Of a stretch of 3,174 bases of DNA, positions 380 to 3,174 are shown piece after piece. Source of the DNA: Escherichia coli (GTDB lineage Bacteria; Pseudomonadota; Gammaproteobacteria; Enterobacterales; Enterobacteriaceae); NCBI RefSeq assembly GCF_024298765.1, contig NZ_CP101217.1; one strand, written 5' to 3'. Every line of letters begins with the position of its first letter. Position 1 is the first letter of the stretch. Position numbers and translations under genes: made by a program. The notes under the pieces are model-generated. The model searched no databases. It was not told the DNA's origin and saw nothing but the letters and a program-made list of their open reading frames with translations.

Positions 380-775
380 TTAATGATGATCTGGGCTTGT
401 TTCAAGATCGAGCCTGATTGCCTTAAGTTTCTGTAATATATTGTCTTTTGGGTATCTCAGTTCGCCTGTTTTTGTGTCCACTAGTCCGGCCTCGATCAGT
501 AACCCCGCCGCAAGAAACAGGCGGTGATTGCGTTCCCGTCGTTGTGTTTTCCCCTCCATCCGTTTTTGGTTGGCCTGTTTGCGTGCGTTCTCCTGTGCCT
601 GTAGCTCGTTTTTTTCTGCGGTTGCCAGGACGTGGAGTAGTTTGCGCTCCTGTTCTGTTAGTCCGGCTTCGTTATCGAGCAGGTCAATGATCTGCCTCTG
701 TCGTGCGGTCTGTTCTCCGAGCTTCCTGATAAAGCCGATTCGTTTCTTCAACCAGTCGATGTTGCTGATGCGCAT
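380..775 (-). CDS. mobC: MobC-like relaxosome accessory protein (131 aa)
   Basis: Minus-strand ORF, ATG at 775-773, stop TAA (complement of 380-382). AGGGAG Shine-Dalgarno on the minus strand about 10 nt upstream of the ATG. Divergent from the relaxase gene across the oriT region, as in IncQ mobC-oriT-mobA. The motif KTQRRERNHRLFLAAGLLIEAGL resembles the RSF1010 MobC motif as recalled (ERKNETRRKVLVGAMILAKV). The six-frame track extends the ORF to a GTG at 895 (171 aa), which would run through the oriT palindrome; the ATG at 775 with its RBS is preferred. Confidence 0.7.
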   Translation of the reverse strand: MRISNIDWLKKRIGFIRKLGEQTARQRQIIDLLDNEAGLTEQERKLLHVLATAEKNELQAQENARKQANQKRMEGKTQRRERNHRLFLAAGLLIEAGLVDTKTGELRYPKDNILQKLKAIRLDLETSPDHH

Positions 776-882: not shown

Positions 883-940
883 GCAGGAAGCGCACTTATA
901 TGTTTCTTCGCCGTTGGCTCAGAAACATGTGCGCTCCTGC
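883..940. other. oriT: origin of transfer (oriT), MOBQ/RSF1010-like, with candidate nic sites
   Basis: Inner inverted repeat ATGTTTCT (900-907) / AGAAACAT (921-928), with GCC/GGC pairing inside the spacer; compare RSF1010 arms CCAGTTTCTC/GAGAAACCGG (recalled). Outer imperfect inverted repeat GCAGGAAGCGCAC (883-895) / GTGCGCTCCTGC (929-940). Minus strand reads AGAAACAT-ATAAGTGCG|CTTCC (plus coordinates 898-886), matching the RSF1010 nic core TAAGTGCG|CCCT 8 of 8. Plus strand reads AGAAACAT-GTGCG|CTCCTGC (929-940), a shorter match. An additional small hairpin TGCTAATT/AATTAGCA lies at 865-885. Confidence 0.7.
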
Positions 941-954
941 GGAGGGCTAACACC

Positions 955-1908
955 GTGGCAACCTATCACCTCAATGTAAAATTTGGCGGCAAGGGACAGG
1001 CCGGAAACCATGCCGATTACATCGAACGCAAAGGCGAGTACGAGAAACGAAAAGATCTGGAATACTCAGAGCACGGGAATATGCCAGGCTGGGCGCGAGA
1101 TAATCCCTCCCATTTCTGGCAAGCGGCTGATCAGTTTGAACGTGCGAATGGTTCGACTTATCGGGAGATCGAAATCGCCTTGCCGCGTGAACTGACACCG
1201 GATCAGCGCATTGAACTGGTGCAGGATTTTGTGCGTCAGGTAGCTGGAGAACGGCACGCCTATAGCTTTGCCATTCACAATCCAAAAGCGAGCATTGACG
1301 GAGGGGAACAGCCTCATGCGCATATCATGATGAGCCAGCGTATTAACGATGGTATGGAACGTTCGCCGGAACAGTATTTCCGGCGTTATAACGCCAAGAA
1401 TCCCGAACGGGGAGGCGCAAAAAAAGATTCAGGCAATCTGACACCGACTCAGCAAAAAGAGCAATTGCGGACGTTACGGGCGAGCTGGTCAGCGTTACAG
1501 AACGAGCATTTAGCGCGTCATGGTCACAGGGTGCGCGTTGACCATCGCTCACTGGAAGAACGCGGAATTAAACGCACGCCAGAACGGCATTTCGGATTTG
1601 CCGCCTCATCACGGCTTGATCATGCGCAGCGCCGCGAAATCCTGCAAAACCGAGCGCAGCCGCTCGAACATTTTCTAGAGAAAGCGCATTCGGTTCGCCA
1701 TCAATTTGATGCACAAGTTCAGCAAAAAGAGTTAGTTAAAACGCTTTTACAGGACGTCGCACGGGAGCGAGGGCACGCGCTTACGGCAAGAATAAATAAA
1801 ACAGGTGAAGTTGAATTTGAACGTGCGCCAACGCGGACGCGGAGTAACACGCGAGGGCACGGCATGGGCATTCGTGACAACTCACGCGGGTACGACTACG
1901 AACGTTAA
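955..1908 (+). CDS. mobA: MobA relaxase, MOBQ family (317 aa, relaxase domain only)
   Basis: GTG start at 955 preceded by GGAGGG (941-946, 8-nt spacer); stop TAA 1906-1908. N-terminus MATYHLNVKF...HADYIERKGEY parallels RSF1010 MobA MAIYHL...ADYIQREGKY (recalled). Conserved motifs: ADYI (candidate catalytic Tyr22), REIEIALP, the His cluster H108...PH121AH123IMMSQRIND (candidate metal-binding triad), RYNAKNPERGGAKK, and VDHRSLEERGIKR. Confidence 0.9.
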   Translation: MATYHLNVKFGGKGQAGNHADYIERKGEYEKRKDLEYSEHGNMPGWARDNPSHFWQAADQFERANGSTYREIEIALPRELTPDQRIELVQDFVRQVAGERHAYSFAIHNPKASIDGGEQPHAHIMMSQRINDGMERSPEQYFRRYNAKNPERGGAKKDSGNLTPTQQKEQLRTLRASWSALQNEHLARHGHRVRVDHRSLEERGIKRTPERHFGFAASSRLDHAQRREILQNRAQPLEHFLEKAHSVRHQFDAQVQQKELVKTLLQDVARERGHALTARINKTGEVEFERAPTRTRSNTRGHGMGIRDNSRGYDYER

Positions 1909-1919
1909 AAGGGGACTGT

Positions 1920-2450
1920 ATGGCGAGTACAGAAGAGGGGTTGCTCACGCTCTTGTTGTCCGTTGAGCATTTGAAAAACACTGCGATAGAACAACAGAAA
2001 GCGGTTGCAGACACGCTGGCGGTCGCAAGGGAAACACTGCGGGGGTATCGGGATATTTCTGACAGTGTTGTAAAACAGGTTAGCGATGAAGTCAGAAAAG
2101 GGGTACAGAAAACGGACATTGCGGGGCTGATGGGTGAGCGCATGACCCAGGATTTTCAGCGTCTTGAAGAGACTGTGGCAAAGATGAGAGCCAACGCGGA
2201 GGCGCTTAACAAGGACATTGCGACAATTCATCACAATGTTGTTAAAGAATACAACACGCTCAATAAATACAGTCTGAAATGGTTTATCGGTGTTACGGTC
2301 AGTTTTCTGGTCATGTTCTCGTTGCTTGGCTGGTTTACCAAAACGTTGATCGACAGGAACTACACCGCGACGGAGGTCGTGTATCAGAAAATTGTTGATA
2401 TTGAAAAGAAACTGGACAAACCAGCAACAGGGAAGAGCCGGAAAAACTGA
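1920..2450 (+). CDS. mobilization-associated membrane protein, possibly MobB-like (176 aa; coiled-coil N-terminus, single C-terminal TM helix)
   Basis: ATG at 1920 lies 11 nt after the mobA stop, with AGGGGA RBS-like sequence at 1908-1913 (GGGGA centred about 8 nt upstream), implying operon coupling. Residues ~1-118 are charged and heptad-like (E/K/Q/A-rich). Hydrophobic segment WFIGVTVSFLVMFSLLGWF (aa 121-139, nt 2280-2336) is followed by a short basic tail. The antisense 200-aa ORF (1905-2507) has junk-like composition. Functional assignment is by position and by analogy with the membrane-associated MobB of IncQ plasmids, not by recognised sequence identity. Confidence 0.7.
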   Translation: MASTEEGLLTLLLSVEHLKNTAIEQQKAVADTLAVARETLRGYRDISDSVVKQVSDEVRKGVQKTDIAGLMGERMTQDFQRLEETVAKMRANAEALNKDIATIHHNVVKEYNTLNKYSLKWFIGVTVSFLVMFSLLGWFTKTLIDRNYTATEVVYQKIVDIEKKLDKPATGKSRKN

Positions 2451-2475
2451 CGCGCTTCGCTTGTCCAACGCCTCA

Positions 2476-2502
2476 CGGGACGCGAAAAAATTCCGCGTCC
2501 CG
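2476..2502 (+). terminator. candidate hairpin terminator downstream of the mobA operon
   Basis: 9-bp GC-rich stem CGGGACGCG (2476-2484) / CGCGTCCCG (2494-2502) with a 9-nt A-rich loop, 26 nt after the ORF stop. The downstream T-tract is interrupted (TTCACCGTTTTCT), so intrinsic-terminator assignment is weak; it could instead be a structured single-strand site. Confidence 0.35.
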
Positions 2503-2703
2503 TTCACCGTTTTCTGATGAGAAAGTTTGCCGTTTTGACCCGTTCGGTGCTCAGATTTGGCGAAATTGATTCCGAATCACTTTTGTGAATAGTTATGCAA
2601 GCCCCTGGAAACGTTTCTGACGCGTTTTTTGAGGTAGGGGTGGGGGAAAGCATGGTTTTTTGATGTTTTGAGCGTAAAAGCGTGAAAAATCGCGTTATTG
2701 TGC

Positions 2704-2732
2704 TTGCGATCTTTCGTCAGGGAGCGTAGAAC
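2704..2732 (+). promoter_or_regulatory. candidate sigma70 promoter for a plus-strand primer-like transcript (RNAII analogue)
   Basis: TTGCGA (2704-2709), 17-nt spacer, TAGAAC (2727-2732). It sits immediately upstream of an A-run plus hairpin (2734-2757), similar to how the ColE1 RNAII 5' end overlaps the RNAI terminator. Hexamers are only 4 of 6 matches to consensus. Confidence 0.2.
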
Positions 2733-2733
2733 G

Positions 2734-2757
2734 AAAAAAGCCCGCCGTTAGGCGAGC
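2734..2757 (-). terminator. rho-independent terminator, minus strand
   Basis: Minus-strand RNA would read GCUCGCC-UAAC-GGCGGGC followed by UUUUUU. 7-bp stem with one G-U wobble, which is a C-A mismatch in the plus-strand transcript, so the structure is strand-specific. The U6 tract corresponds to plus A2734-2739. Confidence 0.5.
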
Positions 2758-2860
2758 TTCTTCGGGTTCATTGAGGTTTTCGACCTCCTCAATGTTCCTG
2801 TGGAGTCTGTTGCGGCGACAACGGAAACCAGTTCATTCAGTTTGCATGAACCTTCTGTAT
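2734..2860 (-). ncRNA. candidate antisense regulatory RNA (RNAI-like), boundaries approximate
   Basis: Upstream of the minus-strand terminator (on that strand) are two more hairpins: CATTGAGG/CCTCAATG (2769-2794, 8-bp stem) and GTTCAT/ATGAAC (2831-2851, 6-bp stem). Three stem-loops ending in a terminator within ~120 nt resembles ColE1-type RNAI architecture. No confident promoter found; the 5' end is not defined. Overlapping ORFs in this region look non-coding. Confidence 0.25.
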
Positions 2861-3174
2861 TCTTCAAGCATTACCGACCGCACAGCCTCCCCAGAATCCC
2901 GAAAAAATCCTGTTTTTGCAGATGATTGCGTGTTTGCAAAGACCGTTTGCGGTTGGGGGAGCTGTGACGACGGCAACCGCACGCGTGAGAGTTCCGCTAC
3001 CGGCGCAGAGAGTTTCATCGACAGCGGACACCTGATGAGTTGCCACAAAAACCGTATGTAGCGCGGCTAGATTGGTTGAGTTAGACCTTGGCGGCAGTTC
3101 CCGGTATGTGGTGGCGTGACGGGTGAGATGGTGCGGCGAAGACGCATACGTCACGCAGGCGCGGGTTCTTCCAC

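Follow-up and report, generated by a model that had tools for sequence, protein, structure and literature searches.

A conserved, predicted membrane-anchored protein encoded in the mobX position of the MOBQ mobilization cassette of a 3174-bp Escherichia coli plasmid

What does the last gene of the mobilization cassette of a very small enterobacterial plasmid do? The DNA analysed here, contig NZ_CP101217.1 of the Escherichia coli RefSeq assembly GCF_024298765.1 (the whole stretch of 3174 bp is called the window below), is a complete circular mobilizable plasmid, so the two window ends are contiguous in the real molecule. RefSeq annotates three genes on it: a divergent gene for a 131 amino acid (aa) "hypothetical protein", a gene for a "MobA/MobL family protein" (mobA), and, following mobA, a gene for a 176 aa "hypothetical protein", WP_000168766.1, which is the subject of this report. 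The original prediction, made from the letters of the window, recognized no specific family for this third protein and thought that a MobB-like link between relaxosome and membrane and an entry exclusion function were equally possible. We find that it does have a relative, the MobX protein of plasmid pSC101, to which it corresponds in position and is probably remotely homologous. The protein belongs, as a divergent member that has so far lacked annotation, to the small membrane-anchored accessory proteins of MOBQ mobilization systems, and, from the comparisons given below taken together, we think it reasonably probable that it is a MobX-like, functionally MobB-like inner-membrane accessory protein of the relaxosome, encoded by the third gene of a pSC101-type MOBQ cassette.

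Is the open reading frame (ORF) in fact a gene? Its length by itself is unremarkable, since ORFs of 100-200 aa are found mechanically in many places in the window, and one of them, on the opposite strand, overlaps it entirely (Table 1). One could argue from these facts that the 176 aa ORF arose by chance or that the antisense ORF is the real gene, but comparison with relatives refutes this idea, whose probability we regard as negligible. The ratio of nonsynonymous to synonymous substitution rates (dN/dS) of the 176 aa ORF is 0.07-0.19 against relatives of 60-99% identity, a range like that of mobA, and its substitutions are concentrated at the third codon positions of the plus-strand frame. 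That frame, whose conservation across related plasmids the original prediction had singled out as a point to check, stays open in all 13 homologues compared, the most distant of them at ~24% identity, and the antisense frame is open in just two of the 13. The plus-strand frame is therefore the gene, and the antisense ORF is a chance ORF; the 176 aa ORF is real, conserved and under purifying selection. It also has the start that had been foreseen for it, 11 nucleotides (nt) past the mobA stop codon (TAA, 1906-1908) and preceded by a ribosome-binding-site-like AAGGGG within 1909-1919.

The company that the gene keeps ties it to the relaxase. By tblastn its protein is encoded in 514 plasmid records (481 at full length, with ~50-100% identity), 493 of which are typed as mobilizable and whose hosts are mostly Escherichia, Klebsiella, Salmonella and Shigella; a full-length relative of the window's MobA is present in 532 records, and the similarity of the two counts indicates that the genes co-occur close to one-to-one. 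In each of 11 diverse relatives (to ~24% identity) the gene lies directly downstream of a gene for a MobA_MobL relaxase of 302-353 aa, and the junction of the two genes in these 11 contexts varies only from a 23-nt overlap to an 11-nt gap (-23 to +11 nt), a range narrow enough to show that tight mobA-ORF coupling is conserved. A divergent gene of ~128-142 aa is usually present upstream, and mobA and this TraD-like gene (see below) are the only conserved neighbours. The cassette is carried on several replicons, namely ColE2-type/Col156, Col3M, Rep_3 and the rep-less replicon of the window plasmid, and sister plasmids of 3885 bp retain positions 209-2629 at 98% identity with the remainder swapped for a Rep-encoding replicon. 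Sitting as it does on different replicons, the three-gene cassette behaves like a portable unit. The family of the ORF protein is narrow, since only 69 relatives were recovered when its profile was run against 1.84 billion representative proteins.

This distribution bears on one alternative, in which the protein is a membrane tether for plasmid maintenance that serves stability or copy control by positioning the plasmid or MobA, or that modulates MobA at the origin of transfer (oriT) without contact with a secretion system. Such a role would fit the retention of the gene on very small plasmids, where each gene is costly, as well as the poor documentation of the role of MobX in the accessible literature and an AlphaFold2 model that showed no sign of contact with MobA (below). 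We nevertheless consider it unlikely, since the gene travels with mobA and not with a particular replicon, its co-occurrence follows the relaxase (532 and 514 records, above), and both named proteins of equivalent architecture, MobX and MobB, are mobilization proteins.

Which known cassette does this one resemble? Both pSC101 and pSC101-type plasmids carry a divergent gene for a "conjugal transfer protein TraD", mobA, a 12-nt gap, and a gene for a 194 aa protein that RefSeq names "mobilization protein MobX" (WP_010891053.1, the "22 kDa relaxation protein"). By its title, a paper by Meyer of 2000 identified the pSC101 mob genes, and these are reportedly mobA and mobX. The partners of the ORF in the window are homologous to those of pSC101 mobX: The window MobA matches the NCBIfam models MobQ (E = 6.4e-26) and TraA_Ti (E = 2.2e-30) and aligns by BLASTP with the MobA of a pSC101-type Serratia plasmid at 63% identity over 235 aa (E = 3e-108), and the divergent 131 aa protein, which has no Pfam or NCBIfam match, aligns with the "conjugal transfer protein TraD" of a pSC101-type Serratia plasmid at 40% over 101 aa (BLASTP, E = 3e-13). 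The latter two proteins have in common the motif R-x-H-x-L-x(3)-AGLLI-x-AGLVD-x-KTG, and the divergent gene has the same position as traD in pSC101, across oriT from mobA. With homologous MobA and TraD-like partners in the same layout, including a mobA-to-third-gene distance of 12 nt in pSC101 and 11 nt here, the ORF stands where mobX lies in a MOBQ cassette of the pSC101 type, and this positional equivalence is firm.

The physical character of the protein is largely as the original prediction had it. The ~118 N-terminal residues, described there as charged and heptad-like, have a hydropathy periodicity of 3.5 residues (power over the first 119 aa of 64.6 at 3.5, as against 0.7 at 3.0 and 1.0 at 5.0), and the occupancy of their heptad a and d positions is above that of shuffled sequences (z = 3.5; 0 of 500 shuffles reach it), with the cleanest heptads at about aa 75-112. 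The one hydrophobic helix, at aa 121-140, has a Kyte-Doolittle 19-residue mean of 1.94, and the next best segment elsewhere in the protein has 0.51; this transmembrane (TM) helix is preceded by a juxtamembrane motif, Y-S-L/W-K, and an equivalent TM segment is present in all 12 family members analysed (Kyte-Doolittle values of 1.6-3.2). The C-terminal tail of 36 aa is basic, with nine lysines and arginines (K+R) and five acidic residues (net charge +4). The AlphaFold2 model of the ORF alone shows only two long helices (2-61 and 67-165) and is of low confidence, with a predicted local distance difference test score (pLDDT) of 62.6. The most conserved part of the protein is aa 1-95, which is 74-80% identical to relatives, has a dN/dS of ~0.10 and contains most of the invariant residues; the tail, in contrast, is 40-69% identical to relatives with a dN/dS of 0.35-0.39, and is variable and mosaic.

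The orientation in the membrane is likely N-in/C-out, for three reasons. The 15 aa before the TM helix contain more K+R than the 15 aa after it (means of 2.8 and 1.3), with the N-terminal flank the richer in 10 of the 12 members and counts of 3 and 2 for the window protein (TM 121-140); the N-terminal domain (120 aa) has ~35 charged residues and no signal sequence; and the tails of the sister families described below carry paired cysteines, which fits a periplasmic tail. The "tail-anchored-like" topology proposed earlier is right in that the anchor is C-terminal, and the term itself is borderline, because the TM helix is followed by 36 residues; a bitopic protein with a C-terminal anchor, probably oriented N-in/C-out, describes it better.

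The ORF and mobX are equivalent in position, but are their products related in sequence? MobX has the same architecture as the ORF protein: its ~115 aa helical N-terminal domain is followed by a Y-S/T-W-K motif, then by a single TM helix, and last by a C-terminal tail. When an alignment of 14 sequences of the window family was compared with an alignment of 10 MobX sequences by hhalign, the result was a probability of 78.5% and a score of 39.2, with the two profiles staying in register from the second helix across the Y-S/T-W-K motif and over the TM helix. Because coiled coils and TM helices inflate profile scores, shuffled and reversed controls were run: 100 block shuffles of the MobX columns (within N-domain, TM helix and tail) scored 15.6 ± 2.8 with a maximum of 24.6, and reversed alignments scored ~22. 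Decoys of identical architecture, R1162 MobB and ElaB, gave hhalign probabilities below 6%. Two further proteins with the same cassette position and architecture, a 166 aa downstream protein of Acinetobacter small plasmids and a 238 aa downstream protein of the E. coli plasmid JE86-ST05_p5, extend the comparison; both have Cys-rich tails and, like the window family, are annotated as hypothetical. The Acinetobacter family bridges the other two, with hhalign probabilities of 82-91% to the window family and 93% to MobX. MobX and the 238 aa E. coli protein are linked at 97.6%, and the latter has no direct similarity to the window family (1.9%). The motif before the TM helix, in the general form Y/F-S/T-W-K, is common to the window family, pSC101 MobX (RYTWK) and the Acinetobacter family (QFSWK). 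The window family also differs from MobX: it has its own invariant N-terminus, MASTEE-LLTLLL-EHL, and, past the TM helix, the motif NYNAT-VYQK, the tail is shorter (36 aa in the window protein, compared to ~55 aa in MobX), and no annotation pipeline applies the name MobX to the window family.

Other database comparisons gave little. The ORF and its distant relatives drew only coiled-coil or TM noise from Pfam, NCBIfam and PADLOC, a sequence profile search of the PDB gave nothing below E = 0.17, and the AlphaFold2 model, a low-confidence helical one, had no Foldseek match in the PDB. One profile collection suggested something quite different, an XhlA/holin-like membrane-active protein that would act in lysis, toxicity or post-segregational killing: the XhlA-like "hemolysin" profile PHROG 1193 hits aa 73-134 (E = 6.6e-5) and also matches two close relatives (E = 3.1e-5 and 7.7e-3), Pfam XhlA gives E = 0.11, and the two share a layout in which a coiled coil leads into a TM helix. 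This is very improbable in our estimation, as the PHROG 1193 match reaches no further than the heptad helix and halfway through the TM helix and is absent from six more distant family members, the Pfam score is below significance, PADLOC returns coiled-coil noise only, and no lysis or toxin-antitoxin partner is conserved nearby, the contexts all being plasmid mob cassettes.

MobX is not the only protein with which the ORF product can usefully be compared. The IncQ MobB protein (R1162/RSF1010, 137 aa) is likewise a small accessory protein of a MOBQ relaxase, and its architecture is alike, in that a helical N-terminal domain (~94 aa) leads into a single TM helix (95-118) and a short tail; its flanking K+R counts of 3 on the N-side and 1 on the C-side have the same N-side bias as those of the window family. 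R1162 MobB is reported to have a membrane domain and a MobA-binding domain and to increase transfer frequency (PMC4655240), and, as the title of Parker & Meyer 2007 puts it, MobB is required for the type IV transport signals of MobA. The arrangement of the genes differs, in that IncQ mobB is embedded out of frame within a long relaxase-primase mobA (in the IncQ1 plasmid pQ1), whereas the window ORF follows the stop codon of a short mobA; in addition, IncQ MobC gives no BLASTP alignment with the divergent protein of the window.

From these parallels we would picture the function of the ORF protein as follows: In a cassette with the order TraD-like accessory gene, oriT, mobA and then the ORF in the mobX position, the ORF protein would be made together with the relaxase through tight translational coupling, and would be a bitopic inner-membrane protein with a conserved, coiled-coil-like cytoplasmic domain of ~120 aa, a TM helix and a short, variable periplasmic tail. 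The cytoplasmic N-terminal domain could then bind MobA or the relaxosome, and the TM helix could hold that complex at the inner membrane beside the coupling protein and type IV secretion system of the helper plasmid. Holding at the membrane would raise the frequency of mobilization, in the manner of the sequence-unrelated R1162 MobB on which this picture is modelled.

Several observations weigh against such a MobX-like, MobB-like protein and must be set beside those above. Single-sequence searches do not link the window protein to MobX (there is no phmmer match), and the phmmer link of P0095 to MobX is weak (E of at least 0.015 at Z = 1e6). What resemblance there is to MobX is remote and falls in large part on the TM helix and the juxtamembrane segment, and the window protein, which contains no cysteine, lacks the two tail cysteines that are invariant in MobX (C168 and C173 in the alignment of that family). 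Window family and MobB have no sequence similarity (hhalign 0.75%, with 8 aligned columns, and 0.5% with a wider profile). The records all label the family members "hypothetical protein". AlphaFold2 applied to a MobA-(GGGGS)6-ORF fusion, with a shallow paired alignment of 12 rows, gave no gain in pLDDT for the ORF part, and the MobA C-terminal region stayed at 35-55; the fusion model thus offers no computational support for direct contact with MobA, and we read it as uninformative rather than negative. Finally, in a mirror-tree comparison the ORF N-terminal domain correlates with the N-terminal part of MobA at a Spearman coefficient of 0.79 and with the C-terminal part at 0.87, which does not single out the MobA C-terminus because the two MobA parts correlate with each other at 0.875. 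On balance, the remote homology of the ORF protein to MobX is probable but not proven. The earlier suggestion of a MobB-like link from relaxosome to membrane fares well on context, on the mobX slot and on architecture, and does not extend to sequence kinship with R1162 MobB.

The pattern of variation within the cassette is relevant to the second function that had been suggested. The cassette is mosaic: NZ_AP027841.1 (L003) has a TraD-like gene 100% identical to that of the window, a mobA 69% identical and an ORF 81% identical, and L003 and pJJ1886_2 (L002) have mobA genes that are 99.4% identical and other two genes that are different. There are also recombination breakpoints inside the ORF, near aa 96 and aa 128; P0003 agrees with the window protein at every residue from aa 97 onward, and L003 does so only over aa 97-128. 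These in-gene breakpoints hint that the recombining half with TM helix and tail may tune helper specificity or exclusion. In an entry (surface) exclusion role, the protein in a plasmid-carrying cell would block related plasmids through its periplasm-exposed tail. It would suit an inner-membrane protein with a short exposed tail whose TM-plus-tail half is the most variable and is exchanged by recombination in discrete types, since exclusion-specificity determinants show such variable, recombining patterns too; in addition, the mob regions of ColE1-type plasmids include MbeD, which is credited with an exclusion function. Against it, the protein has no signal peptide and no lipobox-like (lipoprotein-like) N-terminus (the maximum hydropathy outside the TM helix being 0.51), matches neither MbeD nor any exclusion family in Pfam or NCBIfam, and has a large conserved cytoplasmic domain (dN/dS ~0.10) that exclusion leaves unexplained. 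The strict translational coupling to the relaxase gene and the mobX position indicate a role on the donor side, and a mobilizable plasmid that uses several helper secretion systems offers exclusion no fixed target. With the gene found nearly always beside a relaxase gene, exclusion is not the equal of the MobB-like function that it was first taken for, and we judge it to be quite improbable.

A broader and more speculative extension of the MobX-like assignment is that the window family, MobX, and the Acinetobacter and E. coli downstream proteins together form one widespread and unrecognized superfamily of bitopic relaxosome anchors on short MOBQ relaxases, in which the cytoplasmic domain docks the relaxase and the variable TM/periplasmic half sets the usable helper secretion systems or adds exclusion. 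We hold this extension to be possible and rather doubtful. If it were true, the protein would be a module that decides how widely very common clinical small plasmids, carriers of qnrD included, can be mobilized. Recognition of the protein as a membrane accessory also suggests that short MOBQ relaxases generally have small partners anchored in the membrane.

The cassette is very common. Sequenced plasmids that carry it number more than 500 and come from E. coli, Salmonella, Klebsiella, Shigella and Proteeae; 4,270-bp qnrD1 plasmids are among them, and its third gene is annotated as "hypothetical" everywhere; a label of MobX position and MobB-like character gives the gene a testable role and would improve the annotation of mobilizable plasmids. 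For example, the 4,270-bp NZ_CP147115.1 (L018), which is of the qnrD1 quinolone-resistance plasmid type, has the same mob cassette including a member of the ORF family, and two metagenomic contigs (L013 and L014) carry the same cassette together with pentapeptide-repeat (Qnr-like) proteins. In the qnrD literature only "a mob gene" is mentioned (PMC3913671), and in the literature searched no paper discusses the 176 aa ORF. The finding is ordinary in concept and overturns nothing known about conjugative mobilization, and its usefulness comes from the commonness of the cassette in clinical Enterobacterales. Some automatic names given to these proteins are misleading: the clusters P0005 and P0019 of the window family are named "Mg2+ and Co2+ transporter CorA" by the Joint Genome Institute (JGI), the JGI name of the MobX clusters P0144, P0174 and P0183 is "ElaB/YqjD/DUF883 membrane-anchored ribosome-binding protein", and some MobX relatives are called "tRNA modification GTPase" at NCBI. 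The misleading names probably reflect the coiled-coil-plus-TM composition of the proteins.

Table 1. Coordinates of the ORF, its predicted domains and the features around it in the 3174-bp window.
Feature	Coordinates	Strand	Description	Basis
ORF (WP_000168766.1)	1920..2450	+	176 aa, ATG start	
N-terminal domain, codons 1-120	1920..2279	+	helical, heptad-periodic, predicted cytoplasmic	periodicity, AlphaFold2, conservation
TM helix, codons 121-140	2280..2339	+	sole TM helix, WFIGVTVSFLVMFSLLGWFT	Kyte-Doolittle
Tail, codons 141-176 and stop	2340..2450	+	36 aa, basic, predicted periplasmic	charge counts, positive-inside rule
mobA-ORF spacer	1909..1919	+	11 nt, AAGGGGACTGT; Shine-Dalgarno-like AAGGGG within, ending 5 nt ahead of the ATG	read from the sequence
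mobA	955..1908	+	MOBQ relaxase, 317 aa, GTG start	NCBIfam, BLASTP, RefSeq MobA/MobL family
Candidate oriT core	900..935	+	inverted repeat 900-912 / 916-928, then GTGCGCT 929-935; 13-nt arms, 85% complementarity	repeat search
TraD-like gene (WP_001222910.1)	380..775	-	TraD-like (MobC-type) relaxosome accessory protein, 131 aa	BLASTP; RefSeq "hypothetical protein"
Antisense ORF	1905-2507	-	200 aa, overlaps the entire 176 aa ORF	
Hairpin	2475..2503	+	strong; 13-nt arms, 92% complementarity, 3-nt loop	25 nt 3' of the ORF stop

The remaining features of the cassette are listed in Table 1. The mechanical ORF of the TraD-like gene reaches position 895, and its annotated and conserved start is the ATG at 775-773. 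Between this gene and mobA lies the candidate oriT core, close to which there is a perfect 8-bp inverted repeat (865-872 / 878-885); the GTGCGCT that ends the core also has a reverse-complement copy, AGCGCAC, at 889-895. Judged from these repeats, the region 865-935 is likely to be oriT, and its layout of an inverted repeat followed by GTGCGCT is presumably like that of R1162- and pSC101-type oriTs, in which we take an inverted repeat to precede a ...GTGCGCC/CT nick region. The hairpin downstream of the ORF is a possible end of the mobA-ORF transcript; it has no adjacent T-run and fails a strict terminator scan.

The C-terminus of MobA (1885-1905) has an S/T-R-G-aromatic motif that is kept in all clades, although the 100 residues before it are poorly conserved. 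Its variants are RGYDYER in the window MobA, RGFSMGF, RGFSISR and RGISMGW in relatives, KGWSFSR in the pSC101-type protein and FRGMSR in Acinetobacter, and it could be a docking or secretion signal. Some relaxases (H120 and H121; for example that of NZ_CP023651.1, a 5114-bp plasmid of Shigella sonnei) match only the first ~225 residues of MobA, at ~61% identity, and may be MOBQ4 relaxases with a primase-like C-terminal extension. This suggests that cassettes with a short MobA and a MobX-like protein and cassettes with a long MobA are sister designs. The MOBQ4 plasmids of Garcillan-Barcia et al. 2019 were considered as the identity of the window module and rejected, since they have a MobC of <100 aa and long relaxases with a SogL-like C-terminus.

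The window plasmid itself is not confined to E. coli. It is 100% identical end to end to NZ_CP084293.1, a 3174-bp plasmid of Citrobacter werkmanii, and over its full length to pTB508 of Salmonella, and is ~99% identical to many 3172-bp Salmonella plasmids; close matches of 3172-3175 bp are present in Salmonella, Shigella and E. coli. The similarly sized pMUT1 of E. coli Nissle was ruled out as the identity of the plasmid, as its gene set differs. The presumed replication region, 2630-3174 plus 1-208, contains no rep gene, and an Rfam scan of the whole window gave zero matches, RNAI included. About 177 small plasmids (3.1-3.4 kb) share this presumed replication region at 90-100% identity, and within it, at 168-186, a run of 13 A residues is followed by GGATCT, an arrangement that we take to be reminiscent of ColE1-type origins.

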